The notes beneath the pieces are model-generated. The model made no database searches and was not told where the DNA came from. It was given only the letters and a program-made list of their open reading frames with translations. A stretch of 64,000 nucleotides of DNA, from NCBI GenBank assembly GCA_051294905.1, contig CM119372.1:14634001-14698000 (forward strand). Reading direction: 5' to 3'. Position 1 is the first letter of the stretch. Each line of letters starts with the position of its first letter. Positions 1,471 through 37,037 of the stretch are shown in pieces. This DNA is from Botryllus schlosseri (lineage: Eukaryota). Position numbers and translations under genes: made by a program.

Positions 1471-1749
1471 GCGAAACTCGTGGTGGCATGCTAATGTTTT
1501 TTGGTATACGTGCGGCGACATGCTAACGACGATAAATGTGTCTGTCATGTATTCTTACGGGATCTGTGGCGACTCGCCATGTGTTCTTGCGGTCGTGATT
1601 CGCACTTTCAGGTATCTCTCGCGTGGTGTTGAATATGCACGAGTCACCAACAATAACCGCGCGGACGGAAACGTGGTTTGTTGTGAGGATTTACGCAGTG
1701 CGTGCGACAGACGGCGATTCGAATATCAACAATAGTCGCGTTCGCAAAC

Positions 1750-14300: not shown

Positions 14301-14584
14301 CAAAAAACATTAGCATGCCACCACGAGTTTCGCGTTATCATGCGACCGCACCCATAAGACGAAAACGTTAGCATGTCACCCCCGCCATAAGACGAAAACG
14401 TTAGCATGCCACCCCCGCCATAAGACGAAAACGTTAGCATGCCACCCCCGCCATAAGACGAAAACGTTAGCATGCCACCCCGCCATAAGACGAAAACGTT
14501 AGCATGCCACCCCCGGTTTTCGCGTTAGCATGCGACCCCGCCATAAGAAACAATGGCGAATCACGACCGATCATACTAACTACT
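8351..14584 (-). repeat. Right arm of 6.2-kb inverted repeat
   Basis: Reverse complement of 1219-7452, with only a few differences seen by eye. Confidence 0.97.
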
Positions 14585-15810: not shown

Positions 15811-18201
15811 CCAAAACAATGAAAAATTCGAGGCTGATTGTGGGGGTTCCAGGGCCGCGAGCGGAATAAAATTTATATTTTCGTAATCAGTGCAGAGTCA
15901 GCTTTCGATTGATACAAGTTTTACCAAATTTAATGCTCGGCAAGCCGGTCAAAAATGACCGTCAAATTGCCTGTAGCCAAATGGAAATTGTGACGTGATA
16001 CAATTTCACTCAGGCGTGAGATTTGCTTGTGTCGACACCTTATAGGACACTATGCTTTTATCCTAATCCAATCCAAATCCGACAAAATTTCGCAAATCCT
16101 GTTTTTACAAATCCTAATCCACATCCATGCTCATTGCTCATCTCTGCTAGGGTTACCATATTTTTGTATAGATAACCGTAGGCTAGTTATCTATAATTTT
16201 TGTGACCCAAATTCCGGACGCTTTTTAGCGTGCACTAGTGGATTTCAAAATGAGTTATGAGCACATTGTCTGTCAATATGACGTCACACCAGCAAAGCTT
16301 TGCTTATCGACCTTAGGTGGTTACGAATCAGAGAACCAGGATCAGGAGTGTGTGGCTGTGTGTTGTGTAATCGGGACCGAAACCACATTTTTTCAGCCCC
16401 GTCCCGCCCAAATAAACAATGATTTTGGGCCCACTATAGGATAATCGATGCGACTTCTAGGGGGCTTGCTATATGCATCTGGTCGTTTTTTTGGAATGAC
16501 TTCTGTCAATAACATTGTTTCTTCCATATTACTATATAGTTTGATCCTCTCTCCGCCACACAATCAGAGTTTGCGGTAGAGCTGGTAGAGGATAATGACT
16601 TCGAAAATACAGGGAGCGTAATTGCACATCGTTAAGTCATGTTCATGTCACACCGATAATATTGTTGATCAGCCTTATGCCGGTGGACACCACGGAGCTT
16701 TATAACCACCCCACATCCAATCGTTTCCAACCTGTCATGGTCGCGACTCCATTTCTAATTTGTACGGTGGCCCTTATCAAAATTAGACGAGCTGATTACT
16801 AAAAGAAGTTAGCACCTTTGCCCAGACTTACTCACGGGGTATTTTGAAATCTGACTACGTTCAGCATCTTCGCGAAACCCAGAATAAAGGCAAACGACCC
16901 CCACGTTTGGAAGCACTATCTCTGAAAAAAGCATTTAAACGACCTTAACCATCTCTAGGAATATACCGTTCTCCTATAATTGTTATTACAATTTAGTTTA
17001 TTTCAGTAAACGAAGGTTATTTATATTTTATTGCAGTTTTTCCTAGGGTGGTAGTCCCCATATTAAAACATTGAATGTGATAGTAAATGACGCGCAGAGC
17101 GACGAAAAATATCATGTAGCATATATATTCCCCAAAATATGATGTTATTATGTTGATTTACGAAAAAATTATGAGCCTACGTCAAGCCTTCAAAATTGCG
17201 GACATTTAGGCATATTTTAAAAATTCTTCCCTGACGCAAGTTTGAGCAGTGCAATTCTGGACGTGTGGTATGGTTTATATAGCTCAGTGATTGCAACCCT
17301 AGTATAGCCTATCCTCCAAGCCTGGTTTCTTTTGTCTGAATCTATGGTCGCTTCTTATTCAGTCAACCGTAACATGCATTGCCTGTGTGTTCTGTGTTGT
17401 GTAAAGCGTTGTTTTTACAGTGATCATCATCATCATCATCATTGGTTTATTAGCAATTGTATCAGTTCAATACACCACAAAAATGCGATACAATGAATAG
17501 ACAGGAAGATGTCGAAGCGACTTGGAGTAGTCTATGGAATCAGACACCCACCTTGGCCTAGGCGATGTAAATAGGAGGCATGCACACTGAATGAAAGTAA
17601 AGAAGACACTGAGCTATATGTAAACAAAACAAGCAAGTAGCAAGGTTGTATTTGAGGTGCGGAACCCAGGTCAGTAAAACCATGCATCCCTTGGCTTCAA
17701 ACTCTTGGAAACTGCTATAAATTCTTTGCGTGAGGCCTTGCAATAGTCTCAGTTACATTAGTCATCAGGCTATAAAAAACAGTCACCCGTAAAGTGTATT
17801 AATATTAGGATTATAATGTATCCGTTATTCGTTGAGTAATAATCAATCGTCCGCGTTAGTATTCTCATCTACACAGAACGCAGTGTGATGAATATTAATA
17901 GCATGAATGTTCAGTTGAAATCAACAGACGAACCTTCGTCTGGACCGTTGTGTAGTGTCAGCCTGTATGGAATCGGTGTGCTATGCTCACACTATATTCT
18001 ATTTTTTAATTATTTTTTATTGAATTACTTTAACTTGGAAAATCATCGCTGCTCACCTGATATATCAGGCAAAAAGGCCAGCGATTCCAATCAGGCCGCG
18101 GTGCCGGTATATCAATATACGTCGAGTTATAATAATTGTATTTTAATGAAAAATATTTTGAAACCAAATAAACACCTTTTATTATAGATTTCGAGTCCGT
18201 C

Positions 18202-19026
18202 ATGGAATATACTCAAGCCTGTCCATCTGGATATAGTAAAATTTTTGTGAAATACGACTCCTCGTGTAAATACAGTCATGAGCTGCTGTTTAAACCGGAT
18301 GAAACAAGAAAAGAAAATTCGCTGAAGCCCGCAGGAAGAACGTTACTAGTCGCCAACGTTCCACCATATTGCAGCAAAACCAATCTTGAAAGGATCTTTT
18401 CAAAATTTGGAAAGGTTGATTCCGTACATCTAGTTCACGCCCTGGGCGGTGAATCCGAGTATCACGCGAAGCCTCCTGTTGTCACCGACTTGACTGACAA
18501 TGACAGGAAATACTTTCCAAAGAAAGAAGAATACGGCTGTCCTTTTGCCTTTATAGTCTACCAAGACAAATCATCTATTACTAAAGCTATGGGCCAAACG
18601 ATCAAAGTAGCTCCAACTCTTTTATCGCGAAATGAAGCGATCGGTATGAAGAAATGGGCACAAGAGTATTACAGCCAGTTCCCAAATCAAGATGAACTGA
18701 AAACTAACATCGACGCTTATATGGCGAGATACGATCGTGCGATACTACAGAGAGAGGAGCAAGAAAAACTTGCGGGCGAGGAGGACAATGACGGGTGGAC
18801 AAAGGTGACAAAGGGCGGAAAGACTCCATTTATCGCAAGAACCGAGGCTAACCAGTTGAAAGCCAAAGAAAAGAGGAGGAATAGAAGCAGGGATTTGCTG
18901 AACTCGTATTCCTACCAGATAAGGGAGTCGAAGCGACAAAAAATTGCAGAGCTTCGAGAAAAATTCCAGGAAGACAAGCAAAGGGTGCAGGAAATGATAG
19001 AGGCGAGAAAATTCAAGCCATTTTAA
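18202..19026 (+). CDS. RRP7A: Ribosomal RNA-processing protein 7 homolog A (intronless, 274 aa)
   Basis: N-terminal RRM-like region (RTLLVANVPPYCSK..L..IFSKFGKV), FAFIVY, G(M)KKW, and the C-terminal RRP7 motif EEDNDGWTKV...LLNSYSYQIRESKRQKIAELREKFQEDKQRVQEMIEARKFKPF. Confidence 0.93.
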   Translation: MEYTQACPSGYSKIFVKYDSSCKYSHELLFKPDETRKENSLKPAGRTLLVANVPPYCSKTNLERIFSKFGKVDSVHLVHALGGESEYHAKPPVVTDLTDNDRKYFPKKEEYGCPFAFIVYQDKSSITKAMGQTIKVAPTLLSRNEAIGMKKWAQEYYSQFPNQDELKTNIDAYMARYDRAILQREEQEKLAGEEDNDGWTKVTKGGKTPFIARTEANQLKAKEKRRNRSRDLLNSYSYQIRESKRQKIAELREKFQEDKQRVQEMIEARKFKPF

Positions 19027-19658
19027 AAAACGCTATCAAAGCGAAACTGGAAAGGCAAAGAATCGTTTGCAGGGAAGCGATGCCGCAAACACCGATAGGA
19101 TTTTAGTGAGGGAAAGAATTTGCTGACAAGAGCTGTCAGAAACAATAAGACACGCATGAGGCCTCGTCATGAAATATGGGATATGCGAGTTGAGATTACT
19201 GTACTGTTGTGCCATTGATTGCATGGTGACAATTTGGTTTGGGATCTTTAAGCCATACGGTAGCCGACTGTGCTCGCAGCCACCGCTAGAGCACAATATC
19301 AGATTTATAATGACCATATGCGTCATCATCATCCTTGGAAAAAGACTGCTGATGGGCACAAGATGTGATTTCACGTCCCGAATCCGGTGTAATATGCTTG
19401 TATTTAACACATTTCGTGTGGCAGCAAAACGACTGAAATACATTTGAAAACTGGCACACAATCATAGAAAATAGTAATAAACAAATGAATGAATGTCAAC
19501 GTGTCATGAATGGAAACGTTACTACAGTATCAAGGAAGAACGTGCGCATTTATTCGACTCGAAGCAATGAGTGCGTGACCAACAGCTTAAGTAACACAAT
19601 AATATAAACAAACTTGGCATATTTTTCAACGTATTGAAGCGAATGATGCAGGATGAGA

Positions 19659-20014
19659 CTAACTCTCGGTCTCGTATTTCTCAACGAGATCAGGTGGCAA
19701 GTCTCCCGTCCTCAGAAGATTGCGGCATTTATCCTTGAGCATCCCAGGAGTCCGCGATCCCAAATCCTCGTAGCCGTCGTCAAGCATGCTCGACCAATTA
19801 CCGCGCGGGTGCTTACGAAGTAGGTCTATCAAAGCTGCTGTTTCAGTTGCGGTCCATTTATGCCTCACACGATCTCTCCGTCGCAATCTATCCAGCTCCT
19901 TTCGGCGCTTCTCTCTTTTGTCTTTAGCTTGTTTGCTGCCACTGTACTTATGTGTGGATCTTGATTTCAGTGTTTTGAATGCGTTGATTGTGCTTGGTCG
20001 TGTTGGAGATCCAC
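19659..20014 (-). CDS. Terminal exon with telobox Myb domain (Myb4)
   Basis: Acceptor taacag, then GGSPTRP...RHKWTATETAALIDLLRKHPRGNWSSMLDDGYEDLGSRTPGMLKDKCRNL...TAG; resembles TRF helix 3 RTxxMLKD(R/K)WR. Confidence 0.85.
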
Positions 20015-23000
20015 CTGTTATAGCACATTAACAAGCAAAATAATTAGGCCATTGCGATACCACTCGAGTACCAGACTTCGATTTCCCGCATCATGGTGTT
20101 CGGATTCAAAAGTTCCTCTCCGACCATGAGTGACCGGCATGCTTTTCTTAATGATCATACCATGATATAATTTTGTTTTAAAAAAAGGCCCACTAATTTG
20201 AAAAGTTATGTTAATCTGCATTTGATGTCCTAATTATAGATGCTTGAACCCTCAACAGGATGGTTAATTCTGACCAAGGAAATGGATAAATCTTGTCGGT
20301 TTCACCCGTCCTCGTGCTATCGTTTATATATCACTGTAAGCAGCTTGCAACCGGATCAATGTCAATGGTTACGGTTGTTCATGAATTAAGGCTCTTATTG
20401 CAAACCATATGTAGCCTAATACAGATTTGGCTCCACTGCCCGAAAACCGTAACTCTTGGCGTGACATATGGTTGAGCCATAACTGCTACATATTCTCCAT
20501 GTCAATTAGCCACACACTATTTTTAAGAATTTCTATTGAAGTTGTCAAAGCGCATGGAGAGCGAACATTTGTGAATATGGAATAGTGTGTAGCATCAAGT
20601 TATTGACAGTAGAAAGAACCGGTTCAATTAGTCACATCAAGGTGAAGTAACGCTGTATACCAGGGAGATTGCATAATTGGTAAATCTACTGCAGTTGACA
20701 CAAAGAGAACCCAGTTCGAGTCTTGGGAGTGATTTGAATAGTTGTGTTTACCTGGGATACGCTTCCGCTATGTTACTGTTCTTAATGTGTCGCTGTATAG
20801 ATCTCTTTTGCCTTAGGTTCCCGGCCTCCGGTATAATAGCTTAGCTCAGAGGTTCTCAGCAAGGTTTTCTGTGACACTCACCACTGCTCGGAAATCGGAA
20901 AACTTTTACCATGATTGACAGTAGTCGAAATTGTATATTGATGTATTCAGACATTGACGAGTTGAATGTCATGCCACAAGAATAGAATAAAATTTGGTTC
21001 CCAGGGTGTTACCTATGCTACTTCCATGCTTCTCTCATCAAGCTTCGGGTCCCAAATGTGACACCAACAGCGAATAAGTTTGACAACCTCCGGGTCTGAT
21101 TATAGTCCACACGGAAAAATATGAAGGATATGTAACTTGTGGCTAGCTCAAAAACGATTTACTTCCAACTATGTCCATTTCATATATATATAACTTGCGA
21201 TAGCATGCGGGTCAGGAGGCACAGAATGCCAGTTCGTCCCTTCACCCTCAATTGCATTCTGGGCATATCTGGCGTCTAAGTAGATCACACTTTACCTTGC
21301 AACTGACCGGAGCTCTTTTCATTCTCGCTTTCGGTAGAAGTGCTCTGCCCTTCCAGTGTGCTCGGCGAACGACTTCGGAGATGAAATTTCGGTTTGCTCT
21401 ACCGCAAAACAAACGCAGTGGTGTAATTACGAAAGCAGTACAGATTGCAATCAGTATCTACCGTTTGAGTAGCGGCATCCATGCTTCTGTTGAGTATTGG
21501 AGAGTTCGAAGGATCTGTTTCTGATATGAACGCAACGCAGTTTTACCACCGAAATAAAGCTGACTGAATACAATTACCTGAATTGGTGATAATGTGCAGG
21601 CTGTTCTCCTCGTCGGTAGAACGCAGGTCGCTGTTCAACGGATCCTGAACAAATAAAATTTTTAAGTACGCCAACGGGTATTAACTAAACATATTTCCCA
21701 ACCTCTATATCCGAAGAGTTTGATATGACCCTCCTACGTTTGATCATCACAGGACCCTGAAAGAACCAAAATTTCAAATACGACAATTCTTAATAACGAA
21801 ACATATTTACAATTTGTATTTACCTCAGAATCAGAAGAACATGTGTCAGTGGGATCAGCATCAGGATTTCTGAAATAAAATGTGGAAAGGCTACATCTTG
21901 CGATGTTACAATTGTGCGGCGGTAAAAGCAGAATAAGAATGTATTTTAGCAGGACTATGCAAGCGCTTGGATGCGCGTCACCTTGTTAACCACGGGGATT
22001 CCACGCTGGAATAAATCATGAATGGGTGACGCAATTATTGGTCTCACATCCATGTAAGATTCAGTGTCAAAGTAACATATTCAAGGACTGTAAACGTAAC
22101 ACACTACTACACTAAAACTTTCACCGCATTCTTGGGCAGAGCAAGGTGACACTCTGTAGTCGGGGTTTCGGTAAATTTTCTCTTCATAAGTCAGAATCAC
22201 GGAAAGCACATACTGGCTGACTCTGACTCCATCCACCTCAAAATTGAACCAAATGTTCCTTAAATAGTGTCGGTGAAGTTACAGAAGTTGTCAAGTTTTT
22301 CATGTAGGTGGGCCTTCAATCATAATTCCTTTCTACAAGCTCAAATTATTTCAACTAAAAAATGGTTGAGCCACCTGATACTAACAACTAAAAATGCATT
22401 AAACGTGTAATCTTCAGAGTAGATTTACGAGAATGTTGGATTCAAGTCGGAGTTTGTGAAGAAACTATTGGGAGTCAGAGTTGGTATATTGAAAATGTCT
22501 AAAGTTAACTATAAAGTAGGGTTGCCATACGTCCGGAATTTCCCGGGCATGTACGGAATTTCACTGTTCAAACTGCGTATGGGAGGAAATTCAAAAATAT
22601 GACTCATGTCCAGAGTTTTGAAGGCTTGAAATAGGATCGATTTTTTTTCGTAAATCGACATAACCGATATTATTTTTTGGGCAGATTTATGCCACATGCC
22701 ACTTATACTTTTTCTTCGCGCTGCCCGCGATTTAGTGACAAATCAATTGATTTTAATATGTGCACTGCCGACCTCGCAATACATGCATAAAAATAACCAT
22801 CATTTACTGATACAAGTCTAATTGTAATCGCAAAATCAAATCAAATCAAAATTTCATAGTGATATATGGAAGAATCAATATTATAAACAGATTTCATTCA
22901 CAAAATTCAATGACCAGATAGATGCATATAGAAACCAGATGTTGCCCCTCAGAAGTTACATCGATTACCATATGGTGGGCTCAAGATCAGTATTTATGAG

Positions 23001-26000
23001 GATGGGAGTGGGCTGAAAATGTTGTTTCGGTCCTGGTTACAACACACGACCACATAACTGCACCGACGTAACATTATAGCGGCTCCTGATGAGGATTGTG
23101 TCCACCTCTGGTCGATAGGCAAAGCATTGCTAGTGCGACGTCATATTGTGTCTTAACTCATTTTAAAAACCACTAGTGGGCGCTAAAGGGTATCCGGAAT
23201 TTGCCTCACCAAAATATGGTAACCCTACTGTAAAGTGAACCAAAGCACTGCTGTCACCGAATGTGTTGGCGACAGCTTCACGGGTTCGAAATTGCCCGGC
23301 CGACTTGAAATTAATACCTAAATAATCTTCAAATTCATCAACGTAAAATCCAACCAACTTTTTTCGGCAGTTGAGAACCTTGTTTTTCAACTGCTCTGCG
23401 ATCTCCTCAATGTTTTCGGCCAGCTTTTTGTCGATGCATTCAATCGACCCGTCGACAACTTTAACCGCATTTTTGCTGCACAATTTACTCCATCTGAATA
23501 ACATGATACTGAGTATGCTCACTCGCAAGGTTCCAACAAGCACACCCGGCCCAACCCACCTTTCTTCCATATCCGCCACGGTGATGTGGCTCCGGAAATC
23601 CATGTATTCTTGTATCGCGTGCCATCGCTGTCCCAGATGCATGGCTCCGCACACCAGATATCTCGATCGGCTCCGATAACTCGATAACGGCCGATAACTC
23701 GGCCGATAACTCGATCGGCAGGAACTTTACATCGCTTGCATCAGAAGTCAAGCTGCCCTCGGAAAGTGCAGGGCTGAAAATACGACTCAAGTTGATTCGA
23801 GACTTTGAGATAACGAAGGAGGCTGGCCGAGTAGGTATTTGAAAGTAACTGCATAAATATATACTCGGCAATGAGTAGAAGTGGCGAGACAAATGATACT
23901 TACTTCAAGTAGAAGTATAAAATCAAGGTTCAAAAGTACTCAAGTTGAGTATTTTCTATAAGTAGATTGGTTCGAGGGGTCCTGTGTAGTGTCTACGGCA
24001 GGATTGTCAAACTCAAGTTGCGTCACGGGCCGGATTCAAAATTTCAAACCGCTCGCGGGTCAGACCAATAAAATTATTCCAAAATGTTACCTCAGAATCC
24101 ATGCCCGTGTTGTCAACTTGAACACTCAATTATCCAACCTATGGATCAGTGCTGTATTCTGTCAATACCCTTATTTGCGAGCAATGTCATTGGTAAAACG
24201 TCTACGATTGGTCAGTTGAATACAGTTATATAAATTACTAAAACAATGACAATGACTGTAACGACGATAGACGTTGACATCGTGATCTGGCAATTGTTCT
24301 GTGAATGCGTTGTGAGGAATACACAAGATTTAACTGCATAAACGCAGGCGTTCAAATTTGGTTCATTATTATTGTTATATCGGGATTTGTATTTTCAGGA
24401 ATTCGAGGAACCGTCAAGTCAGAAGTGAAAACGAAGTGCGACCGCAGATATTTTAAATATATTTTTGTGTAACAATTATGTTCTCCATGCAGTCTGCATA
24501 ATACCGGTTTTGAACTGGCGTTTTCACTTCTGTGAATAACTATGTTTTGGTTCATTTTCCCGCAAAACTCCGAGCTCAGTGTGCACATTTTTCTTTAAGG
24601 AATCGGGTGTCAATGGCAGCGACTTGTTGCTGATGGTATAGTAATGTGACCTATTAACACACTGAACATTTCTGTCTTGAGGGATTTAAATAAGTGTTTC
24701 GTACTAAAAATCTCAACATTAGTCTGAAATGTGCAGGATAATACAGCCATTTTCAGAATCACTTCACAGGCCGTATGTTGATCGGAGTGGCTACTTTTGA
24801 AATTGCAAGGTGAGCCTTTGTGAATAATGCAAAAAACTAATGATGCTGCAGATAGCTGGAATCTTTGGGGATATAGTCAGGTACCGGTACCACGATAAAG
24901 GGGATGTTTTAAACGTGTCTTATGACAATTTCACTCAAAAAAATAAAGCAAATTTATCCCAAATCTACTTTTCAAGATCCAAATTGAGTAGTATGGTGAG
25001 TGGGGGTAATCCAACACATAACTACTTAAGTGAAAGTAGGTAAACCATACTCGGGTACTTAGAAAATGTAGTGCTTTGTTACTGACCACCTCTGCTCAGT
25101 TCCGCAGACTCTGGATAACAATCAGCCGTGATATTATTATTGAAAGGCGACGTTGCCTTGCAGGTCTCATACTATCCGCAACGAGTAATTTACACTTTAA
25201 TAACATGAACAGTAGGGTTGTCCAAAATTTGGAAAATCTTACAAATCCTCCGTTGTAATGTCTTATTCTATAGATTATTGATAAAAAACGACAATGGGCC
25301 TAAAAGAAACTCACAGGAAGGCCGTTAAGATTTCGTGCAAAGCGTTTGAAAGTAGCTGCCTAAGAATGGGCGTGCCACCGGCCATAGAACGGCGTGAAGA
25401 CTAGTAATCACGGCTCTTGATTTGCTAATCGGCTATGCTTCAATGGCCACGAGAGCAGCAGCAAGTTGATTAGGTGATCAAGAAGTCTGCTACCGGCGGC
25501 GATTGTGAAAGCGCATTGCATGTAGGTTGGCAGATAATGGTTTAGGATTGATTCAGGGTATGTTGAGGTACGAAATACATGAAGAACAAACAACAGCTGC
25601 TTCACAAAAACGTCCAAAGCATGACCGCTTTATTGTGAAGGAAACCGCCGCAGCCTATATGCCTTGTTTTCAACGAGGGAAAGCATAGGCGCTTATGCAA
25701 GTGGCAATGGATTCCTAGTTTTAGAAAGGATATATCATTATTGAATACAAATATAAAGCTTAACAACGACACTATTAGTTGTGTGATCTTATTGGGCTCA
25801 GGTGGTAGTACATAGTTGAAGTTTTGAATGCTGTAAGAATCGGCGGGTTATGCTTCGCACTTATCAGATGCTTACATCAAATTGTATTCACTTGCAAGTG
25901 TTGCTAAAGTCCTTAATGATGACACAGGAAAGCGGTGTAATAGTAAGCACATACTATGCTGGATATGATATGTCAATGATATGGCAAAGTCCTTAATAAA

Positions 26001-29000
26001 CGCGCAGAAAAGGAATCTAAAGGTAAGCACAGAAAATACTGCATAGTGCATAGTATCCAGCATAGTTTGTATATCATATCAAGCACAGTATTAGTGTGCT
26101 TACATTTACACCTCGTTTCTGCGGCATCATTTGGGACTTTGAAAACACTTACAAGTGAATTCAATTTGCTGCAAACATCTGATAAGTGCCAGGCCTAACC
26201 GTCTGATTCAGCCGATCCCTAGAGCATTCACAACTTCAACTATGTACTACAACCTGAGCCCAATAAGATCACACAAATTATAGTGTCGTTGTTAAGCTTT
26301 ATATTTGTATTCAATAATGATATCCGTTCTGAAACTAGGAATCCATTGCCACTTGCATAAGCACCTATGCTTTCCCTCGTTGAAAACAAGGCATATAGGC
26401 TACGGCGGTTTCCTTCACAGTAAAGCGGTCATGCTTTAGACGTTTTTGTGAAGCAGCTGTGGTTTGTTCATCATGTATTTGGTTTGTTCATCATGTATTT
26501 CGTACTTCAACATACCCTGAATCAATCCTAAATCATAATCTGTCAACCTACATACAATGCGCTTTCAGAATCGCCGCCGGTAGCAGACTCCTTGATCACC
26601 TAATCAGCAAGCTGCTGCTGTCGTGGTCATTGAAGCATAGCAGATTAGCCAATCAAGAGCCGTGGTTTCGTGATTACTAGTCTTCTCGCCGTTCTATGGT
26701 CGGTGGCACGCCCATTCTTCAGCAGCTACTTTCAAACGCTTTGCACGAAATCTTAACGGCCTCCTCGTGAGCTTCTTTCAGGCCTAATGTCGTTTTATAT
26801 CAATAATCTATAGAATAAGACATTACAACGGAGGATTTGTAAGATTTTCCAAATTTTGGACAACCCTAATGAACAGCTGCTTAGCGCCACATATCACCTG
26901 ATCAGTCGGTATCTTGATCCCTGCTGCTTGGGCCGCGGCCTTCCCGACCTGACTGAAGATTTGGACGACCCTGCACGCAAGGTATTTGTCAGTATGTGCT
27001 GCACGAATATTGGATTGTGAATGCGCAGACACATCATTTAACTTCAAGCGTAGTAGCAAATAAGGAAAATCAGAACTTCAATTTGTTTCACAGCCAGATA
27101 TGGTCAGAGCGGTCGTCATTGGTACTCGAGTAGGAGTACGGGAGAAGCATCGATTTCCAACAGATCTCAAAACTACTTCAAAGGAAAGTGAAAAATGAAA
27201 GAATGAAAAGTGCTCAAACACGTAGTCGACTCCGTTTAATTCAAAATTAAAGTGAAAAACCAATTATTGTTTCATGGTAATGCGTAAAGCCAGACAACAT
27301 CAAAACCACTGTACAGGGACAGTCACAGAATAACTGAACTGTTGCTGTGCTGTTTTACCGTAATTGGCACTGATTGCATACGACACAGTTTTAGTTAGCT
27401 CTATTCTACAATATTTCAATACTAAACGATGCAATTACTATGTGTTACTATGTAACAAACACATATAGGGTTCAAATAGTACAGTAATTCTTCAATACCG
27501 AAGCGGTATTTTCACTTGATAAAAGTACACGGCAGTGGTAAGTAAAAGCAAGAAGCTTTAAGCTGGAAAATATGGATAATATGGAAAATATAACGACTCT
27601 AACTGAAGGTTGAATCCACAAAACACAATGCTTCGGCGAATCCCACTATACCAGTTAATTGTCAATTGTAACAGCATGAATCATCTTGCCTCACCAAAAT
27701 TGCTCGAACCTGGGTCCGAATTTTGCGGAGACGAGGAGTTTTATACATGCAATTTCTACTTTTGTTCCTTTCCCGACAATTTTGGCCGAGTAAGGCGGTT
27801 GTCGGTTTGGCTGTAACTTCGAATAGTAGATTTGGTCGAGACGTCATTTTCTTTTAGCACTCGATCGAAGGGGGCTACTTCAGAAATTGCGGGGTGCATC
27901 TTCTCGATTGCGTGACTGATGACACTACAAATTGGTGCAATTTTCAAGAATGACTCATTCCATTACAATTTAGCAAATTTTCTGATATTTGTAATGCATA
28001 CTCTCAGAATTGTCCAATATTTACAAATGTTGAATTCTGGCAGCATTAAAAAAAAATTAAATTGAAAAATTTCCAGCGGTTGAAAAGATAATGCAATTTA
28101 AAATTCTCATGTCACTAGGTGGCGCTGCATGCAAAAATCTTTAAAATCCATATTTTTTGCTGTAATGATGGTGGAGAATCAATTAAAATGTCTAATTGTA
28201 CAATTTTGAGGCCAAGGCATTGAAAAAAATCAACTTTTTCGCCCCAAACTCGAAGGAAAAAAAGTTACGGACCAAACAAAATTGGGGGGGGGGGGCGGAC
28301 TTGAAAATTCATGTAGGATTCTGTTTACACACAAAAAAATTATTGCAAAATGTATTTTGAAGCAGTATGATTGATAAAAAATTGGATTTTAAAATTAATC
28401 TCTATTCCACAAGGGAATCACAAAAAAATTTGTCTTTGCATTGAGTAATTGGTTATAATAGTAGATGTGGTGGGCAGCAGTGCAATGCCACAGTTCATTA
28501 CTCCAAGTAGTCTACGGAATGTTCATTACCCAGCTGTTTTGCTATCGGTATCATTTTTTCTCTGGCAGTCGCAAGTCTCTCCTTCAACGCTGTGCTTAGA
28601 ACCGACAAATTGCCATCGGGCTTCACAACGAGGGCGTTCTGTCTTTTAAGACATCGAAATCTGAAAACAAACCACAAAAATAACGCCCGTACCATACCTT
28701 CGACCATCCGTGGACCGCTTGCGGTTAGAGTACTCAGGTAGTTTTGCCTGCTTACACTACTTAGTAGTTTTGATTTTATGCTACTTATACATCACAGTTT
28801 GCAGTATTTTAGGCAAACTAGCTCTAGTATACATACTTTTACCAGTAATCGAGTGGAAATTCAAAGGAATATTTTACCTCTTCTCTGCCCACATCGACAA
28901 TGGATACTTTGACCGCCTCCGTGTGCACGTAGTATCAAACCCAGATATTACCTGTCTTTGATTTTCGTGTTGGTACAACCGGATGGGAACGGGAAAGATT

Positions 29001-32000
29001 TCAGTATGGTGGCCCAGTTTCCAACTCCTAACTGCAAACAGCCTTCGGCGATATACGAGTCCAGTTCAAGTCGGGTCGAATCTGCATGAATCATATTGGC
29101 CGTAAGTTGCATGACCCGAGGCAAAATTGATTGGCAATCTGATAGACGGGCACGTACCCAGCCAAGAAAAATTGACAGGTTTCATAAAAGGGAGTTTGAA
29201 CATATTCAAAAGTTACCAAGGTAGCATCATGTCATTAGGGTTGAGTACATGCATAAATGTCGATGTAGTTTGCGCATTAGATTCCGCGTGTATAGGAATA
29301 CGCATCGGGCAATTTTAGCGGGATATTCTCCACCACTCCGTCGCAAGTGAAGATAAACCCACTGTCCATTAATTAGAAAGCCACTGCATCACTACATATC
29401 CTTATGCCAAGCCCACAGAGTGTTCATGACCTTGTTGCTTCGCTCTTGGTGTCTCTTCAGCATTCACTATCATCTTCGCTCTAGCAGATTCGAGTCTTTC
29501 CTTCATCAATTTGCTCAGAACGGACAGGTTGCCATCTGCCATCACTGCGATCACGTTCTGCCTCTTAAGGCTCCGAAATCTGAAACAAATCCAACAAATA
29601 GTTAATACCTCGACCCCAACCTTTGACAGCGCACCCTCACGGCTGACATAATTTGGCGTAAAAAACAGTCGTACGTAAGGTCGCGTGCCGGGACGCCTCA
29701 TAGTTCACCAGGGTCAGTGTATGCGAGTGTGGAGTGTTAGTGCACATTGCACGGACAACAAGATCACTCCATGCATAAAATCAAAATGTGTACATCAAAT
29801 CCAAATTTAAAATTTGCTTCCTATAGTACTGCGTACCCTGGTTTAATAATGTTCGGCCTAGGATTGTTATTGTGCATGTAGCGAATAACTCTATTATGCA
29901 TGCAGCCGCCCGTATGACGGCCTTATTTTAGTCAACCAACCACATAGTCAAAATCTACCATTTTTCCCGGGTTTTACACCAGTATTCTAAGCTTGAAAAT
30001 TTTGAAAAGTGTCCTCCTTTCCCGTTTCCAAAATATGGCAACCCCAGCTAAAGTACTGTACACCAACGACACCTGTCTTTGATCTTTGTGTTTGTAAATA
30101 TGGGCGGAAACGGAAAACATCTCAGTATCGTCGCCCAGTTCCCCAATCCGAACTGCAAGCAGCCTTCGACTATGAACGAATCCAGTTCAAGCGTGAACAC
30201 ACTTTTCTGCGTGGAAACGTAAGAACGAGTGTCACTCTCCGTGGACGAGACAGCATCAAATCTGAAATCAAACAACAGGATTGGCTGCGGTAATGCAACA
30301 GTTACTGACGTCCACATACCTTTCGCCAAGCACTACTCGCTTTCTCGGTATCTTTCGAGACTTTTTTGCATCGCCTGGATGTAGAGAATGAAGTAAAAAA
30401 CCAATAAGGGTCTTCGGTACCGGTATAGTTAGAATTTCGTCACATTCTTTGTATATTTTGTCCTTGATGTTCTTGCGTCATATACACCAACTCATAATAT
30501 ACAATATACACACACACACGATCTGTGCATAAGTATACCATGAGCGCATGAACAAGGAAGGTGCATAAATAGACCTGCAAGGCTATCACCAACCCTCCAA
30601 GCTATCCCAGTAATGCTGAGAGCTAATGCCATGGATATTGGATACCAGTGTTAGTAATCAGGCCTTTGGTGTGACCCGGCTGTGGATTGAACCGACGACC
30701 TACCAATCAAAAAGCCGGACGCTCCACCATTACGCTATCTATTACTTGAAGGAGTCAGAGAAATTTTGTAACACCATATGTAGTCGGAGTTGGGTTAGCT
30801 CATACTGGCTGCAGTCATACTTTGTTGAAATGCCGTGGCTCAGGCTTAAACAACTGAAAAATCGAAACAGATGTTGTCAAATGTTACTAAAACGTCCAAT
30901 CACAGATGTTATCTAGGCTTTCATGTAGGCGGAGCTTAACACAAACTCAATTTTATTCTGGAAGCATAATTTTTTACTTAAATGTTAAAAAATAGGTTGG
31001 TTCTTTTTTGGCAATAATTCAACTAAAAACACAATAAAGGTATTGTTTTAACGAGCAGATTTATACGAATGTTTGAGTCGCAGTTCTGTGAATAAATAAT
31101 GCGAGCCGCAGTCAGTGAGCTCAAAGATAAATTAAATACGTTTTGAGTAGTGGAAAAGTGAACCGACTGCACGGCGTTGCTAGTAGCTACCTGATTTGTG
31201 AGCTTGTTTCGTCGGGCTGGACGGGATTTGAAAAAAGCCTTCGTCGTTCTCTTGGTCCTTTTCCTGCGTCGTGTCTCGGCAAAAGTCCACGATATGCTTC
31301 AAGGGTATGATCACGCCTTTTGACAAAAAATATGCAATGTGAAAAATCGGCAGTGTCTGGTATTGTGAGAGAGATTTTCACTGACAGGCAGGTCGCATTC
31401 ACTCAGAATGTGTTCACAGTTCTAATAACAGAGTACCGGCAGCTATTTTCTGAAATATGGCCTGATGTATTCAAATGGGTTCTGCAGGTTCTGCCTACTA
31501 ACATTATTTACTCTTACTGTTATGTTTTTCAGGCAAACTACTTACGACTGGGCGAAATAGCCCCCGTATCATTTCATGGTCTGTGAATAGTGAATATTTT
31601 TTTTGAAAACTGCACCAATCAGCAGTACCACCAGTCATGAAGATGCACCCTGCTATTTTGAAAGCAGCCACTTCCTCATATCGATTCCCAAAAGCATGCA
31701 GCATTACTACTTACATTGGCACTTTTCAAATCTTCATTAGTCATTTTTACATGTCTTGGAAAGCGCCAGTTCAAGTAAGTGAGTAAAAATTATGGCATTA
31801 CTTGTTCTACCTGACTACCATCAAGATCAACGACTACTTGAGAGCACCTCTAAAGATGACACAAAAATTTGTGTGATTCGAGTACATTCATTTACCAGGC
31901 AAACACGATCATCTGCCATAGAACTTCAAATTTTCTGAATGGCAATTTTGAATGTAAACGACAGTTTGAACACAATGTTGCGATGTCGAAATTGTTGTAT

Positions 32001-35000
32001 CTTGGTCAAAATCAGAACTGTCCGCGAGTGAGGTTTGAGAGATGCAAGTACCAATTCAAGGCGAAAATATAAATATTCTTACCCGAAGTGCCCTTCTTTA
32101 TCCTGTAGTTGAGACTGTGTTTCGGAAACAAGACATCCTCTGTTTTGTCATCATCTGTTAATGAAATTTATGTATTCATAACCACCAATTATTCTTACAT
32201 GAAATACTGTAGTAGTTTTACAGCGCAATACGGGATGTACGGTCATCACGTCACAACCTGTATAAAGTCATAACGAAGTCTTTGATAAGACAATAAATCC
32301 GATGTGAGGCGTTGTATTCAATAATACAAATGTATCAACAGTTCAATTTCACAAAGTGGAATTTGGTTCCACAGAAATCAAAACGTATTTCCATGTAACG
32401 TTACAGATGAAGCATCATGTGATTGCGATCTTTGTTTATCCTACAGGTGGAGGAACGATGTAAAAATTTACACGAGACTCCAGATTATGGTAATTCGAAT
32501 GGGGCTTCTTGTTTCGTATAGTAATTTAATATTCTTACCAATATCCTACTCTAAATTGGGTATATAATTATATATGCATTGAGGGGAAGTATTTCAGTAA
32601 TGTGTACTATTTAATTTTTTATAAGCAAGCTACCATAAACGAATGATTCATCACCTGCAGAATTACGTGATTTCCCACCGTCCTCTAGGTCAATGTATCC
32701 TTTTCCTAATTTCTCAAGGATAGACCTTTCCAATGATTTGTTGAGGCCTGTTGACAAAAAGACAAAATTAGACCAAACCAAGAGTCCGCCAATATGCGAT
32801 CAACTACAAACCGCGTATAAATTGAGCAACTGCCTTGTAATAAGCAAGGTAAGAATGCTCTCTCGTTCGCATAATCTTTTCTCGAAGACCTTCTTTCATG
32901 ATGCAACGTTTTATCGTATTCTCGAGCACTCCTCTATGATTGGACTGAAAATACAAGGTGTGCTTGAATGCGTTGATTGAATATGTCCATTTCAAGGTGT
33001 TAAGGGGACTAGCAAGTCAAAAAGTTGCAAAAAAATAAAAATTTTCAATATTTTTTTTTCTGGTTGAAAATATTAACATTGCATCTTTGCTGTCACCTCA
33101 TGGCCTTATTTCACCCAAACAATAACTAAAAACTGCAAAATTTCAATGTTATCGCACACGACTGCAAATAATTCCAGCTAGGTATGAGGGGTTAGCTTAC
33201 TAATTCTGGTCTGAACTTGATATTAAAACATAAAATTACCCTCACACATCGTTCAAATATGTGCTAATCGTACCTTAATGGCTTCGTTGCCACGAAGGAA
33301 TTGGTCAGCCTTGGAAAATTCACCCTTTTTCAACATCCTCAGCACATGCTGCTTTGCCGTTTGAACAAGAATCTCATGACAGCTGGTCGAGAACGATTCG
33401 TGATTTTTCACCTGCATGAATGAGCAATGTTGAATAAACCGGGAAATGGGGGCCCGGAAAAAGTTACTCACATTTTCCCGAAATGCAGCCTCAACGTGAT
33501 GCAATCGAATAAGGAACGCTTCTAAAGGCGTGACGTCGTCGGACATGAGACGTATATCAGTATCAGCATCTCCGAGAAATGCACTAAATATTTTTCAATA
33601 GAGGATTTATTCAAGCAAATTATAGCCAGGAAACCTTCATTTAAACCAGGGCTGCGGATTTACAGAAATGTTGTATGGAGTCGGAGAAAACATGTGTCAG
33701 GAGTTTGCAAAAATGCTAAGACTCTGACTCCAACTACTTTGAAATCGAAGCAAATGTTCTCAAATGCTACTAGAAAGTGCGTCGCTGTTATAGAAGTTAT
33801 TAAATTTTTACAAACTCAATTTCTTTCTGCGAGAAAAACTTTCCCATATTTCAGCAAACCGTATATGTAATGGTATTACTAAAAATGAAAATAATGTAAT
33901 TAACAAACAATTTTCTGAGAATACTGTATTTTCAAAGAGCCCGGAGTCGGAGTTCTATCAAGAAAATATTAGGTGTCGGAGCTGGAGAGGCGTGTTTAAA
34001 GTGTCAGGAGTCAGAGTCGGTATATTGAAAATGTCTAGAGTTGGCGGTGAAGTGAACGGATTCCGCAGCCCTGTTTGAGATAACTTATTAGGTGTTTACC
34101 ACTCTTACACTCAGAATTCAACACCATAGCCTTCACGGTAGAAATTAAAAATATACGGAATGCATAGGAATATGATTTCAACTGTATTCAGCAGGCTTAA
34201 AACTTGTGCACAAATTTGGGTTAGGCTTAAATTTCTATTACGACTCATTCTATCGCATCCATGCTTACTAGTGTGCCAGTGAAAACAGTAGAATTCTCTT
34301 CTTGAACGGCGACCAACCGCCGGGAGTAGTATTTTTATTCTTGATCTCCTCAAATACTTTTGTGCACATTCTGCCGAGCGGCTTGCAGGTAGCTATCACA
34401 TAAAGCATCGCCTTGATACCACTTTCTGTTCTCTCAATGTCTTCCAAATGAGAGAGAATGTCGCTCAGCATATAGTCTGTGATGATTTTAGCCTGCACCA
34501 AACATTGAACAGGAACATATATTAGCATACTCGTTGAGTACAGCACCCAATAGCTATCAATAGTATGTTATTTCCACGTTGTCATTGGCAGAGGTTTGAT
34601 TTCAAATATGCCGTCATGAAAACGGAGCATGAGGCTTTAAATTCAACTTTTGGAGCATTTATACAATAGTAATACTATAAAAAGAGGAATATGATGAATA
34701 TGTAGTGATCCATGTATAATAATACCGAAATTAAAAAAACTATATTTTATCCTACTGATATATTCATTCCACTTATTCAATGATAGTAAATACCAGAAGT
34801 GGTGAGCTATTCATTGATTGTCTCAAGTATAATTGGTGCAGTGAAATTCCAGTCGACAAAAAACAGTGCTTTGCAGCACAGTCTGTCAATGTTAATCAAC
34901 GTCTTCAAGTGATAAAGTAGAATTAATCACTGATAACCGCTTGTAAATATGTGTACCAGTAATCACAGCACTTGGAAATTGTGGGACCATTAATGAGGCG

Positions 35001-35341
35001 GTGCTGAGTGAGATCTAAGGGGACTATGGCAATGTGCATTGTAACCTCAGATACCCTCCGAGGTTATCTATGTTAGCCAGATATATCAGTGCCTACTAAA
35101 TTAAATGAAAAAAAATTTCTAGTCCATACAACACTGATTCCAGTGCACTACCTTCGATCTGCAGGGAAAAACACATAGAAAACTAGCATGCTTGAAAGTG
35201 AAAGACATGATAACCTGGATATTCCCTTTCCTGCTCGCCTCATCCATTGTATCATTCAACTCATCCCTGGAAAGATACAAAGATTGTCCAATGGAGGAAT
35301 TATAGAATAACACAAATACTAACGTACATTGCTCTCGCCAT
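19659..35341 (-). CDS. Telomeric repeat-binding factor (TRF1/TRF2-like), multi-exon: N-terminal TRFH domain plus up to four Myb/telobox domains. Connectivity between ~28530 and ~23770 is unresolved, so it could be two genes.
   Basis: GT-AG exons 35341-35328, 35266-35215, 34492-34269, 33583-33472, 33411-33274, ~32945-32814 and ~32746-32657 splice in frame. They give MARAMDEL...ATCKPLG...DADTDIRLMSDDVTPLEAF...KKGEFSKADQFL...HSYLAYYKAVAQFIRGLNKSLERSILEKLG, resembling TRFH motifs (TPLESA, KEFEKA, FSY). Myb exons lie downstream. Confidence 0.75.
21296..21869 (-). CDS. Cluster of small Ser/acidic linker exons upstream of Myb4
   Basis: GT-AG bounded segments NPDADPTDTCSSDSE, GPVMIKRRRVISNSSDIE, DPLNSDLRSTDEENSLHIITNS, ETDPSNSPILNRSMDAATQT and SKPKFHLRSRSPSTLEG..., separated by ~50-70 bp introns. 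Confidence 0.6.
23379..23770 (-). CDS. Third (divergent) two-exon Myb module (Myb3)
   Basis: KFLPIE..YLVCGAMHLGQRWHAIQEYMDFRSHITVADMEER, intron 23559-23494, WSKLCSKNAVKVVDGSIECIDKKLAENIEE; same phase-2 intron in helix 3 as Myb1/Myb2. Confidence 0.65.
25213..26868. mobile_element. Long-palindromic non-autonomous hAT-type element (1.66 kb) within the TRF-like locus
   Basis: TAGGGTTGTCC...GGACAACCCTA termini, 8-bp TSD ATGAACAG (25205-25212, 26869-26876); arms complementary to about 25970/26070. Confidence 0.9.
28530..29081 (-). CDS. Second two-exon Myb module (Myb2): exons 29081-28952 and 28660-28530
   Basis: DSTRLELDSYIAEGCLQLGVGNWATILKSFPFPSGCTNTKIKDR|FRCLKRQNALVVKPDGNLSVLSTALKERL, canonical splice sites. 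Confidence 0.85.
29431..30261 (-). CDS. First two-exon Myb module (Myb1): exons 30261-30073 and 29579-29431
   Basis: FTLELDSFIVEGCLQFGLGNWATILRCFPFPPIFTNTKIKDR|FRSLKRQNVIAVMADGNLSVLSKLMKERL; the G..FG.GNW..IL and KDR.R pattern matches TRF Myb. Confidence 0.85.
30588..30737 (-). mobile_element. tRNA-derived SINE (MetaSINE-like core)
   Basis: Minus strand reads tagcgtaatggtggagcg (A-box-like)...ggttcaatcc (B-box-like)...gtcacaccaaagg...ctcagcattactggga; related copy at 61903-62043. Confidence 0.6.
33647..34073. mobile_element. hAT-type MITE with GGAGTC repeats in a TRF intron
   Basis: CAGGGCTGCGGA...TCCGCAGCCCTG TIRs; TSD not preserved. Confidence 0.65.
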
Positions 35342-35608
35342 AGTCCTCGATATGGAATAGGCACTGTATAAATTAACTAGGCTATAACATTGGCGGAACT
35401 TCCTGCTCAAAAAAATCAATGATGAATAGTGACTTCTTCTGTTTACGAAGTGTGAAACATGCATCAGCGAATTCAAGCAAATTTTATTACGCAAAATTGT
35501 TACCAGATGAGTTTACACATGCTGACCAAACTCAAAACGAATTGCATCCTACAAACAAGACGGATATTGAACATGCAACACGAAACCCCTCAGAAAAATA
35601 ACCTATAA

Positions 35609-36583
35609 TCATGGGCTCATAAAAGTAATCTCATCCGTGTTAGGAAACCGGTCCATGGTGAGCATTCCCTGCCTTTTCATTTCCTCAAAAATTTCATCAA
35701 TAAACCCAAACCAATAAATGACAAGCCCGGGGCCGAACCTGTTCCAATAGCTCAGATATTGTCCCCGTAAATATTCATTATGAGTCTCTAAATCACCGAA
35801 CGACGCTTTGCTTTCAATCCAACAAACAGGCTGCCCATGAACCACAATAGGAACTTCTAGCTTAATATCAGGAGTTTTATCGTACCCACGCTTGCGGAGG
35901 TCATTTTCGTCCAAAAATGGTAATTTAAGACCGTTGACAAAGTCACGTAACTTCAGTTCAAACTCAAGACCCACTGAGTGGCGGATAGCATCATTAATCG
36001 GCCCGTAACATACATCATAGCTGATGCACTGAAGCACTTGTTCCCGAAGTATGCCATCAGTGATCAGGTAAGGATCTTTTAGCCAGGAAGAGATTACTTG
36101 CTTTGAAGGTACAGGGTTCAATGCGGACAATTCCAGATTTTTCGCTGATGCTCTTGTGTTTGTCAGCTGATCACAAACAGAAATTTGCGTATCGGGATCT
36201 TTGATGTTCATTGATTCATTCCCTTCAGCATCTGTTTGATCTTGCAGGAACTGTTCGATGATAATCCTTGCCATCAAGCTAGGCGGTATCTCAAATCGAT
36301 TGGAAAGATGAACTAGGACGTGTGATTGTTCGTCCGCGACAAATTTGTCGTTGACCATATCTTTATAAAGTTGATAATAATACTTTGACGATTCGCTTTT
36401 CGTTTTGCTGCTAAATGTGACACGGACCCTTTTTTGAATGTAATTCAAAAAAATGCTGAACAAGGTATCGTAGCTACCCAGCGAAATGAATTTTTCTAGC
36501 ACATCATTCAAAGCACTTCTACTACATCTACGATTTTGTCCTTCAATGTGGGTGATGATTTGTCGGTACTCCGCAAGCTTCAT
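35609..36583 (-). CDS. CDIN1: CDAN1-interacting nuclease 1 (C15orf41 homolog), intronless, 324 aa
   Basis: GYDKTPDIKLEVP...CWIESKASFGD...QYLSYWNRFGPGLVIYWFGF (TPD / PD-(D/E)xK-like domain). Confidence 0.93.
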   Translation of the reverse strand: MKLAEYRQIITHIEGQNRRCSRSALNDVLEKFISLGSYDTLFSIFLNYIQKRVRVTFSSKTKSESSKYYYQLYKDMVNDKFVADEQSHVLVHLSNRFEIPPSLMARIIIEQFLQDQTDAEGNESMNIKDPDTQISVCDQLTNTRASAKNLELSALNPVPSKQVISSWLKDPYLITDGILREQVLQCISYDVCYGPINDAIRHSVGLEFELKLRDFVNGLKLPFLDENDLRKRGYDKTPDIKLEVPIVVHGQPVCWIESKASFGDLETHNEYLRGQYLSYWNRFGPGLVIYWFGFIDEIFEEMKRQGMLTMDRFPNTDEITFMSP

Positions 36584-36653
36584 ATTAACCTATCCCTGAA
36601 TTTGAGAAGAAATTTTCAGGTTTGAGGAAGCGTGCAAAAAGTCAGATCAAAGT

Positions 36654-37037
36654 TCAAGCTATTGTTTTTGCTGGAGGCTTGGGCAAAGAAGACTGTATTT
36701 TCACTAAAGATTCTCGTATCTTCTCTTGCTTCTTTTCAAACTCCTCAATCGTGCTCTCCTGACGTTTCAGTTCGCCGGTGATGTAATCAAGTCGTTTTTG
36801 AACGTTGGCTTTAGCTTCGTCCAAATCTTGCTTCACTAGAACGGGACCCGTTAATTTATACACGACAGCATCGCCTTCCAGCACGTCCAGTTCCTTTTTA
36901 ACCAAATCGTTTTCCGTCTGTTGCGATTCGAGCTGCTGTCGCAATTTGATACACTTTGTAATAGTCTTTTGGTTCTTCTGCAAATTCAAGACGTGGCTAT
37001 TAAATTCCTCTTGCAATTTTTTATCAACTTTATCCAT
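36654..37037 (-). CDS. PFDN6: Prefoldin subunit 6 (127 aa from the ATG at 37037)
   Basis: RQQLESQQTENDLVKKELDVL...VYKLTGPVLVKQDLDEAKANVQKRLDYITGELKR. The ATG follows an acceptor-like ttttaacag, so the longer ORF-track start is likely spurious. Confidence 0.93.
   Translation of the reverse strand: MDKVDKKLQEEFNSHVLNLQKNQKTITKCIKLRQQLESQQTENDLVKKELDVLEGDAVVYKLTGPVLVKQDLDEAKANVQKRLDYITGELKRQESTIEEFEKKQEKIRESLVKIQSSLPKPPAKTIA

Follow-up and report, generated by a model that had tools for sequence, protein, structure and literature searches.

The window analysed here is a stretch of 64,000 nucleotides (nt) from the tunicate Botryllus schlosseri (GenBank assembly GCA_051294905.1, contig CM119372.1, forward-strand positions 14,634,001 to 14,698,000), which corresponds to C2:14634001-14698000 in an assembly of 495.5 Mb and 219 contigs; all positions below are counted from its first letter. 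The DNA is eukaryotic, with GT..AG introns, many of them just 57-67 nt long. Between approximately 35.3 kb and 19.66 kb, its minus strand carries a gene with four Myb-like units. With a probability of roughly 0.6, we read this locus as one expressed telobox (TRF-type) Myb gene whose product has up to three Mybs per chain that would bind duplex TTAGGG. The gene would comprise at least 22 exons and encode a protein of roughly 900 residues, in which an N-terminal domain of about 230 amino acids (aa) is followed by a linker, Myb1, Myb2, Myb3, an acidic serine-rich linker, a basic stretch and Myb4.

Transcripts were mapped to positions 18000-37000 from two raw RNA-seq runs (X22 and X24), both of low depth over the gene, and from two contig sets of different studies (X1 and X4), the contigs being treated as complementary DNA (cDNA). 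Fifteen of 41 joints were listed, and 12 of these 15 read CT..AC on the plus strand and hence GT..AG on the minus strand; exon coordinates were taken from the joints after defined shifts of the cut. A single X1 contig (record 1, 2672 nt) contains every joint from 28530 to the last exon, with eleven GT..AG joints and one 48-nt gap (TT..AG, five other letters in between), and continues into the 3' end of the converging RRP7 gene, while the X4 contigs repeat all but one of its joints. The joint 28529>26969 (28530>26970 after adjustment of the cut) was present in X1 only and 26898>23773 in both X1 and X4, so that the path from 28530 to 23770, which a preliminary description of the locus could not close unambiguously, is now closed via a 73-nt exon (26970-26898) and a 3.1-kb intron. 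Further cDNA joints were 30320>30261, 30073>29579 and 28952>28660, the last of which was found in nine X22 raw reads as well as in X1 and X4 contigs; joints 20012>21294 and 21398>21462 were each seen in two X24 raw reads.

The resulting exon chain consists, in its 5' part, of 30374-30320 (with a query on 30374), 30261-30073 and an exon starting at 29579, followed by an exon ending at 28952 and by 28660-28530; in its middle part, of 26970-26898, 23773-23710 continued at 23661-23560, and 23493-23359; and in its 3' part, of 21869-21824, 21756-21703, 21644-21578, 21520-21462, 21398-21296 and 20014 to the stop. Both ends of Myb1 exon A and the start of its exon B were fixed by X1/X4 joints, while the 29431 end was derived from the length of a contig piece, exactly 149 nt. 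The X1 pieces flanking Myb1 exon A measure 54 nt and 149 nt and are essentially whole exons, which shows that splicing extends the Myb1 contig on either side. Read in its cDNA version, the gene has an uninterrupted frame from 30374 down to the stop codon (19661-19659). The multi-Myb gene is expressed. The four Myb-like units of the preliminary description are all found where it had placed them on the minus strand, and its proposal of one transcript with several telobox Mybs is supported by the X1/X4 contigs, which join the Myb2 exon through to the C-terminal Myb. It had also allowed for the exons at 23.8-19.7 kb being a separate gene, which the cDNA joints and the open frame of the cDNA version contradict. 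Coordinates of the features are compiled in Table 1.

Table 1. Features of the multi-Myb gene in the window, listed from its 5' end (a-type and b-type refer to the grouping of Myb units given in the text)
Feature	Position	Strand	Details and basis
Candidate first exon(s)	35215-35341	-	ATG 35341 with donor after 35324, or ATG 35247 with donor after 35215
N-terminal domain exon	34269-34492	-	74 codons + 2 nt, phase 0; single copy in the genome
N-terminal domain exon	33472-33583	-	Splice-aware search, canonical sites
N-terminal domain exon	33274-33411	-	Splice-aware search, canonical sites
N-terminal domain exon	32812-32944	-	Splice-aware search, canonical sites
Last exon of N-terminal helical region	32655-32747	-	Splice-aware search, canonical sites
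Acidic linker exon	32083-32154	-	Splice-aware search, canonical sites
Linker, candidate exon path only	30375-32082	-	About 123 exonic nt in 31314-31947 and a likely exon 31296-31191
Basic linker exon, 55 nt	30320-30374	-	Joint 30261>30320; X1 piece of 54 nt; acceptor site present
Myb1 unit	Exon A 30261-30073, exon B 29579-29431	-	493-nt intron in the R codon of K-D-R|F-R
Myb2 unit	Exon A 29081-28952, exon B 28660-28530	-	Joint from A to B in cDNA; start 29081 predicted
Basic linker exon	26898-26970	-	cDNA joints on both sides
Foldback inverted repeat	25210-26871		1.66 kb, inside the 3.1-kb intron, non-coding; joint 26898>23773 skips over it
Myb3 unit, degenerate a-type, then predicted helix	23359-23773	-	Exons 23773-23710..23661-23560 and 23493-23359; cDNA joints
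48-nt tandem repeat, 12-nt units	23662-23709	-	5 nt in X1/X4 cDNA contigs; net +43 nt
Acidic, serine-rich linker, five small exons	21296-21869	-	X1 and X4 joints; introns of 57-67 nt; frame open
Last coding exon	19659-20014	-	Basic stretch, Myb4 and stop; joint 20012>21294
Myb4 unit, b-type	~19862-19713	-	In the last exon

Myb4 ends 16 codons before the stop and was recognised by the Pfam profile Myb_DNA-binding (PF00249) at 30.9 bits (E 2.9e-7), exceeding the gathering cut-off (24.4 bits). Applied to exon A by itself, the same profile gave 19.6 bits for Myb1 and 13.3 bits for Myb2, these scans being partial because an intron splits both domains. The relatives of known structure point to telomeric Mybs in particular: in a PDB search with the last exon, 18 of the 21 matches at E<=1 were telomere-repeat-binding Mybs (plant TRP/TBP1, TRF1, TRF2 and Tbf1), and with Myb1 exon A, from which most of helix 3 is absent, 15 of the 16 matches at E<=10 were TRF2, TRF1 or zebrafish Terfa, the best being TRF2 Mybs (E 7.7e-4). 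The spliced protein was also scanned, at a search space of 20000, with a telobox profile made of 126 Myb domains from the last-exon matches. Myb1 scored 25.2 bits (E 1.1e-5) and Myb2 26.7 bits (E 3.8e-6); the 78 bits obtained for Myb4 are circular, as the profile was built from its own matches.

Myb3 had no Pfam or PDB Myb match. Its cDNA version nonetheless aligned with the Myb of a paralog on contig C10 (see below) at a Smith-Waterman score of 88 (z 17, with none of 500 shuffles as high), and with Myb1 and Myb2 at scores of 41 and 50 (z 6.8 and 7.6). Myb1, Myb2 and Myb3 furthermore share the position and phase of their intron, which interrupts, as AG|A, the arginine codon of the D/E-R-[F/W] triplet in helix 3. 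Judging by these shared features, Myb3 is a true Myb unit of the same origin as Myb1 and Myb2. Helix 3 reads K-D-R-F-R in both Myb1 and Myb2, E-E-R-W-S in Myb3 and K-D-K-C-R in Myb4, so that the K, the D and the final R are kept in three units and these contacts are missing from Myb3. Since only Myb1, Myb2 and Myb4 retain the K-D-(R/K)-x-R core, they are three candidate DNA-binding units next to a degenerate one; of the "up to four" Myb heads proposed earlier, four units are thus present, with three candidate binders among them.

Myb1 and Myb2 have exons that repeat one another in direct orientation, with DNA identities of 79% and 71% at spacings of 1121 and 919 nt. The two units are identical at 57 of 86 aa, and over the 86 aligned codons the synonymous divergence (dS) is about 1.2 and its ratio to the nonsynonymous one (dN/dS) is 0.18, which indicates an old duplicate with both copies under constraint; the constrained stretch extends for about 35 residues after each of the two units. 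By this pattern, Myb1 and Myb2 are products of an old tandem duplication of a two-exon cassette. The junction 29431>29081, whose acceptor is predicted, keeps the frame. If 30320 were spliced straight to 29081, an early stop would follow, and a productive Myb2 message therefore needs Myb1 in front.

The exons upstream of 30374 were obtained with a splice-aware search that used the codon statistics of neighbouring genes, and they form one frame with canonical splice sites throughout. Enumeration of ATG/donor pairs showed that both candidate first exons join 34492 in phase 0. The in-frame splicing of these front exons, drawn earlier from 35341 to 32657, was reproduced by the prediction and their end at 32655 lies within 2 nt of the former one, while the start at 35341 became one of several candidates. 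Their presence in transcripts was assessed by depth arithmetic, in which X1 bin sums were divided by 10.3, the flat mean depth of the Myb1 contig, to give the implied number of exonic nt. The result was 225 nt in bin 32582-33215 (133+93 = 226 predicted), 249 nt in bin 33216-33849 (112+138 = 250 predicted), 72.6 nt in bin 31948-32581 (72 predicted) and approximately 8 nt in bin 34484-35117 (9 predicted for an exon start at 34492). The same arithmetic favours removal of a 60-nt in-frame intron between 33472 and 33411, which has a GTGAGT donor and a CAG acceptor. Over 28400-36700 the X1 share of sampled words was 0.34, as against about 0.33 for exons only and about 0.5 for an unspliced contig. 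The front exons look expressed; X4 bins do not obey such a simple depth rule. Depth-constrained dynamic programming across the linker (32083-30374) returned many in-frame paths of equal score.

All exons tested were single-copy in the genome; the exceptions were Myb1 and Myb2, which resemble each other, and a distant gene on contig C10 (C10:19791882-19800010). The latter is a second telobox gene, with an 847-codon open frame that contains a helical N-terminus (low-confidence model) and an internal Myb with K-D-R-W-R, and with a downstream exon that ends in another Myb, K-D-R-Y-R, directly before the stop. HMMER search with the last exon of the window gene against 1.84 billion proteins gave 79 matches at E<=0.001, and a word-based protein search with the same exon ("longer" mode) found no homologs. 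The best three matches (P0001, P0003 and P0004; Logan only), 39-44% identical, appear to be counterparts of this terminal exon from other species. The best named relative was the ascidian Clavelina lepadiformis, where LOC143450384 is represented by P0083 (597 aa) and P0017 (562 aa), both called "uncharacterized protein", and where a 111-aa isoform (P0082) carries the NCBI pipeline name "telomeric repeat-binding factor 1-like". P0083 and P0017 consist of an N-terminal region, an internal Myb and a C-terminal Myb. Two further last-exon matches, P0002 (426 aa, JGI/IMG; repeats with K-D-K-W-R) and P0058 (741 aa), have 5 and 11 Pfam Myb repeats, respectively, so multi-Myb telobox proteins exist elsewhere too.

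When 11 Myb units were aligned and grouped by eye, the window Myb1-3 fell together with the internal Mybs of C10 and Clavelina (a-type), and Myb4 with their C-terminal Mybs and with P0001, P0003 and P0004 (b-type). This grouping suggests an ancestral build of a+b, from which the window gene would differ as a+a+a(degenerate)+b. Raw Smith-Waterman scores against the C10 and Clavelina counterparts were 80-91 for Myb3 and 49-85 for Myb4. N-terminus, a-type Myb and C-terminal b-type Myb follow one another in the same order in all three genes, but the C10 and Clavelina proteins contain just two Mybs, whose motifs are canonical (K-D-R-W-R and K-D-R/K-Y/F-R), whereas the window gene has three of a-type, one of them degenerate; moreover, C10 has its N-terminus and a-type Myb in one open frame, without the intron of the window gene. 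Comparison of the three N-termini by BLAST and Smith-Waterman alignment (z ~0) found no similarity. Against the genome, Clavelina P0083 matched C10 at 53 and 49 bits and the window gene weakly, at 27 bits. Because the Clavelina protein maps best to C10, the window gene is a paralog, not an ortholog, and the C10 gene is the likely ortholog of LOC143450384. On its motifs, the C10 gene may be the main TRF-like telomere factor of the animal.

Excerpts of Myler et al. (2021; PMC8653790) describe TRFs as proteins with a TRFH domain and a C-terminal TRF-like Myb, report a single TRF in each invertebrate and identify K-D-R/K-W/Y-R as the TTAGGG-recognition motif. With the vertebrate TRF1/TRF2 and the TRF2-like single TRF of other invertebrates the window gene shares Mybs of telobox type, in an organism that has TTAGGG repeats: a 36-mer of (TTAGGG)6 occurred 3652 times in forward and 7538 times in reverse orientation in the genome (control 0). 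As in TRF1/TRF2, its C-terminal Myb is preceded by acidic and basic linkers. It differs from them in having four Myb-like units on one cDNA-supported frame in place of the single Myb that TRFs make bivalent through homodimerisation, in the lack of a detectable TRFH, and in the F or C at the W/Y position of helix 3.

We propose that Myb1, Myb2 and Myb4 may bind duplex TTAGGG, which would make binding multivalent within one polypeptide. A precedent for the working principle suggested for Myb1 and Myb2 is the fungal Tay1 (Yarrowia, Ustilago), in which, according to excerpts of PMC7952879, two consecutive TRF-like Mybs per chain bind telomere repeats; the comparison is one of architecture. The same excerpts place the Tay1 Mybs near the N-terminus, without TRFH or C-terminal Myb, and call the protein fungus-specific. 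For the degenerate Myb3 a model, likewise compared in architecture, is offered by the telomere proteins TEBP-1/TEBP-2 of Caenorhabditis elegans; of their three Myb modules only the last binds DNA, the preceding two having been adapted for dimerisation (PMC11032478). By this analogy Myb3, the helix after it and/or the N-terminal domain might mediate protein contacts, although TEBP-1/2 have three modules and no separate helical N-terminal domain. The telomere repeat of nematodes, TTAGGC, differs. Several Mybs in one chain that binds telomeres are also known from Rap1 of budding yeast.

Several findings weigh against the reading of one expressed gene with multiple TTAGGG-binding Mybs. The contig sets X1 and X4 were assigned their RNA origin by guess, and raw RNA-seq reads back only three junctions (with 9, 2 and 2 reads). 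Neither the Myb1-Myb2 junction 29431>29081 nor any junction upstream of 30374, including those across 32083-30374 and that of the first exon, is among the 15 of 41 joints listed. That front and Myb exons lie on one contig was deduced by depth arithmetic as the sole basis, and a low-depth unspliced contig could mimic two neighbouring bins (4.05 and 4.03), one of which needs 33 extra nt, ascribed to the direct repeat D5. Two transcription units, with the exons at 34.5-32.6 kb separate, or an alternative use of Myb1 and Myb2 would account for the missing joints and for a linker that can be closed in many ways; Myb1 exon B and Myb2 exon B, moreover, end in the same phase, so that the former could splice straight to 26970. 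We nevertheless hold such arrangements to be quite improbable. Three N-terminal bins share the implied depth of 10.3 with the Myb1 contig, joint depths are similar (10.3 and 12.7), and the 30374-30320 piece is a whole exon, so its contig continues upstream by splicing. The early stop after a direct joint of 30320 to 29081, which makes Myb2 exon A productive only behind Myb1 exon B, and the purifying selection on both copies speak against alternative use as well.

The window allele itself is a further point on the same side: the additional 43 nt at the tandem repeat shift the frame inside Myb3 and bring a stop in the next exon. Together with the repetitive nature of the 48-nt stretch and with a single-copy locus, for which the assembly holds no second copy or haplotig, this leaves some room for the assembled copy being a broken allele or a decaying gene, with the protein truncated after Myb2; we regard this as possible, if on the unlikely side. 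The short in-frame form was present in cDNA contigs of two studies, the five-letter replacement differing by one base between X1 and X4, so this form is present in the population. The X1 contig showed 0 differences from the window in its four listed pieces (2169 of 2672 nt); with so exact a match, the 48-nt stretch could be an assembly error. Every other exon is intact. The stretch is either such an error or a real frameshift or null allele. A 69-nt GT..AG candidate for rescue of the frame by alternative splicing was rejected on hand check, being in the wrong frame.

The N-terminus, described before as TRFH-like, adds the next difficulty. It was tested as contiguous exon or open reading frame (ORF) pieces, not as the whole spliced domain. 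None of five N-terminal ORF pieces matched Pfam PF08558 at E<=1, PDB searches by phmmer with two pieces returned four and two matches at E<=10 with no TRF among them, and the ESM Atlas held no usable match for an N-terminal piece. AlphaFold, run without alignment on a 103-aa front piece (20 residues of which are intron-coded), predicted four helices at a confidence score (pLDDT) of 59, and a helical N-terminus for the C10 paralog at pLDDT 46. With both models, Foldseek against PDB found nothing at E<=0.001 and no TRF among the matches listed; these were generic helical bundles only, at E>=0.7, and are meaningless at such model confidences. The TRFH assignment thus found no support in PF08558, PDB, ESM Atlas or AlphaFold with Foldseek. 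PF08558 searched exon by exon against the whole genome gave no match at E<=10, with the control of that search equally silent, and word-based protein searches with the 113-aa N-terminal ORF ("longer" mode) and the 74-aa exon ("near" mode) gave no homologs. We presume a motif-level resemblance of the front region to the middle of the TRF2 TRFH, in a T-P-L-E turn and a K-x-x-E-[F/Y]-x-K-A helix, which serves as a lead and not as a test. At low confidence, the front domain of about 230 aa may be described as helical in the only part that was folded (103 aa) and as unrecognisable in its family.

With respect to the Mybs, the shortcomings are that Myb3 fails in the telobox profile scan (4.8 bits, E 26), that the strict K-D-R/K-W/Y-R is absent, with F in Myb1 and Myb2 and C in Myb4 at the W/Y position, and that the motifs of the C10 paralog are more canonical than those of the window gene. 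The product could be a Myb/SANT chromatin or transcription factor acting off chromosome ends, on interstitial telobox-like sites or on histones, its likeness to TRF Mybs then being due solely to a common origin of the fold. The departures of helix 3 in all three candidate binders, the presence of canonical motifs in C10 and the absence of a detected TRFH would agree with that, as would the last-exon matches, many of the 79 being multi-Myb proteins of unknown role and none of the 56 scanned having a Pfam TRF domain. We deem such a factor rather unlikely, given that telomere-repeat binders make up 15 of 16 PDB matches of Myb1 exon A and 18 of 21 of the last exon, that K, D and final R of the recognition motif persist in three units, that the genome uses TTAGGG, and that the short Clavelina isoform was named after telomeric repeat-binding factor 1 by the NCBI pipeline.

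In our reading of the locus as a multivalent telobox gene, the window gene is, by its Mybs, a telobox protein with an expanded Myb array, and we infer a telomere function from this resemblance. We do not class it as a member of TRF1/TRF2, because TRFH was not demonstrated in it and because it departs from the strict helix-3 motif and from the single-Myb build. Excerpts of Myler et al. (2021; PMC8653790), the principal survey of shelterin in metazoans, state that TRF orthologs were not found in tunicates and leave the timing of the TRF1/TRF2 duplication open, and those of Poulet et al. (2012; PMC3315331) report just one TRF-like telobox in the two Ciona genomes, C. intestinalis and C. savignyi. 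The window gene and its two-Myb paralog are concrete candidates for the missing tunicate TRF. No paper on a multi-Myb tunicate TRF was found in the literature, the supplements of PMC8653790 and PMC3315331 being outside the search. The architecture had been put forward as not recognised from earlier descriptions, and this holds, within the literature searched, for the four-Myb build, while a two-Myb relative is already in NCBI for Clavelina.

As a tentative and rather doubtful extension, the tunicate TRF might have been rebuilt and not lost, with a fast-evolving, unrecognisable helical head, possibly derived from TRFH, and two to four Mybs per chain; multivalent TTAGGG binding would then arise in part or entirely inside a single chain and not through dimerisation only. 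If true, the failure of searches for "TRFH plus one C-terminal Myb" in tunicates would be accounted for, and the binding architecture would have changed at the very base of the lineage neighbouring the vertebrates. Should the proteins act at telomeres, chordates would include a shift from one Myb with dimerisation to several Mybs per chain, a solution otherwise known from fungi (Tay1, Rap1) and, in other form, from nematodes (TEBP-1/2). The locus further illustrates clearly how a domain is gained when a two-exon cassette is duplicated in tandem and selection maintains both copies, and it displays a frameshift, natural or introduced in assembly, by which the two C-terminal units would be lost.

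The genes on both sides are unrelated to the Myb gene. Upstream it adjoins a CDIN1-like gene on the minus strand (35609-36589; Pfam TPD, E 2e-51), whose cDNA contig ends at 35562. Its stop codon and the candidate starts of the Myb gene, which has the same orientation, are only some 270-360 nt apart (35215-35609); operon-like arrangements with trans-splicing are known in tunicates. On the other side lies the RRP7 gene (18172-19026, plus strand). A single unbroken cDNA contig (18186-20012) connects RRP7 with the last Myb-gene exon, on the opposite strand, and so the converging genes seem to overlap or abut at their 3' ends. A Ric-8 gene nearby groups with chordate clusters.

Elsewhere in the window, identical long open frames occur on opposite strands at 1178-4510 and 11293-14524, in the pairs 4166-4510 (plus) with 11293-11637 (minus) and 1178-1735 (plus) with 14069-14524 (minus), a pattern suggesting that a large segment was duplicated in inverted orientation a few kb away. 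Minisatellite-like arrays at 39753-40352 and 43279-43950 have several frames open on both strands and are made of repeated words of 5-7 residues. Within the Myb gene, an element resembling a short interspersed element (SINE) with a tRNA-like head lies on the minus strand at approximately 30456-30745, in the intron that precedes exon 30374-30320. RNA reads match it by the hundreds, but only in part (90-95% alike), and continue into unlike sequence, so they derive from other copies; tRNA (ARAGORN) and Rfam scans of the window, this element included, had 0 matches. The foldback in the 3.1-kb intron is composed of five arm pairs of 113-203 nt that are 80-95% complementary. A repeat at 22438-23071, in the 1.5-kb intron, shows very high contig depth (1649 in X4 and 224 in X1), and a short piece related to it, the direct repeat D5, is present at 33998-34053.

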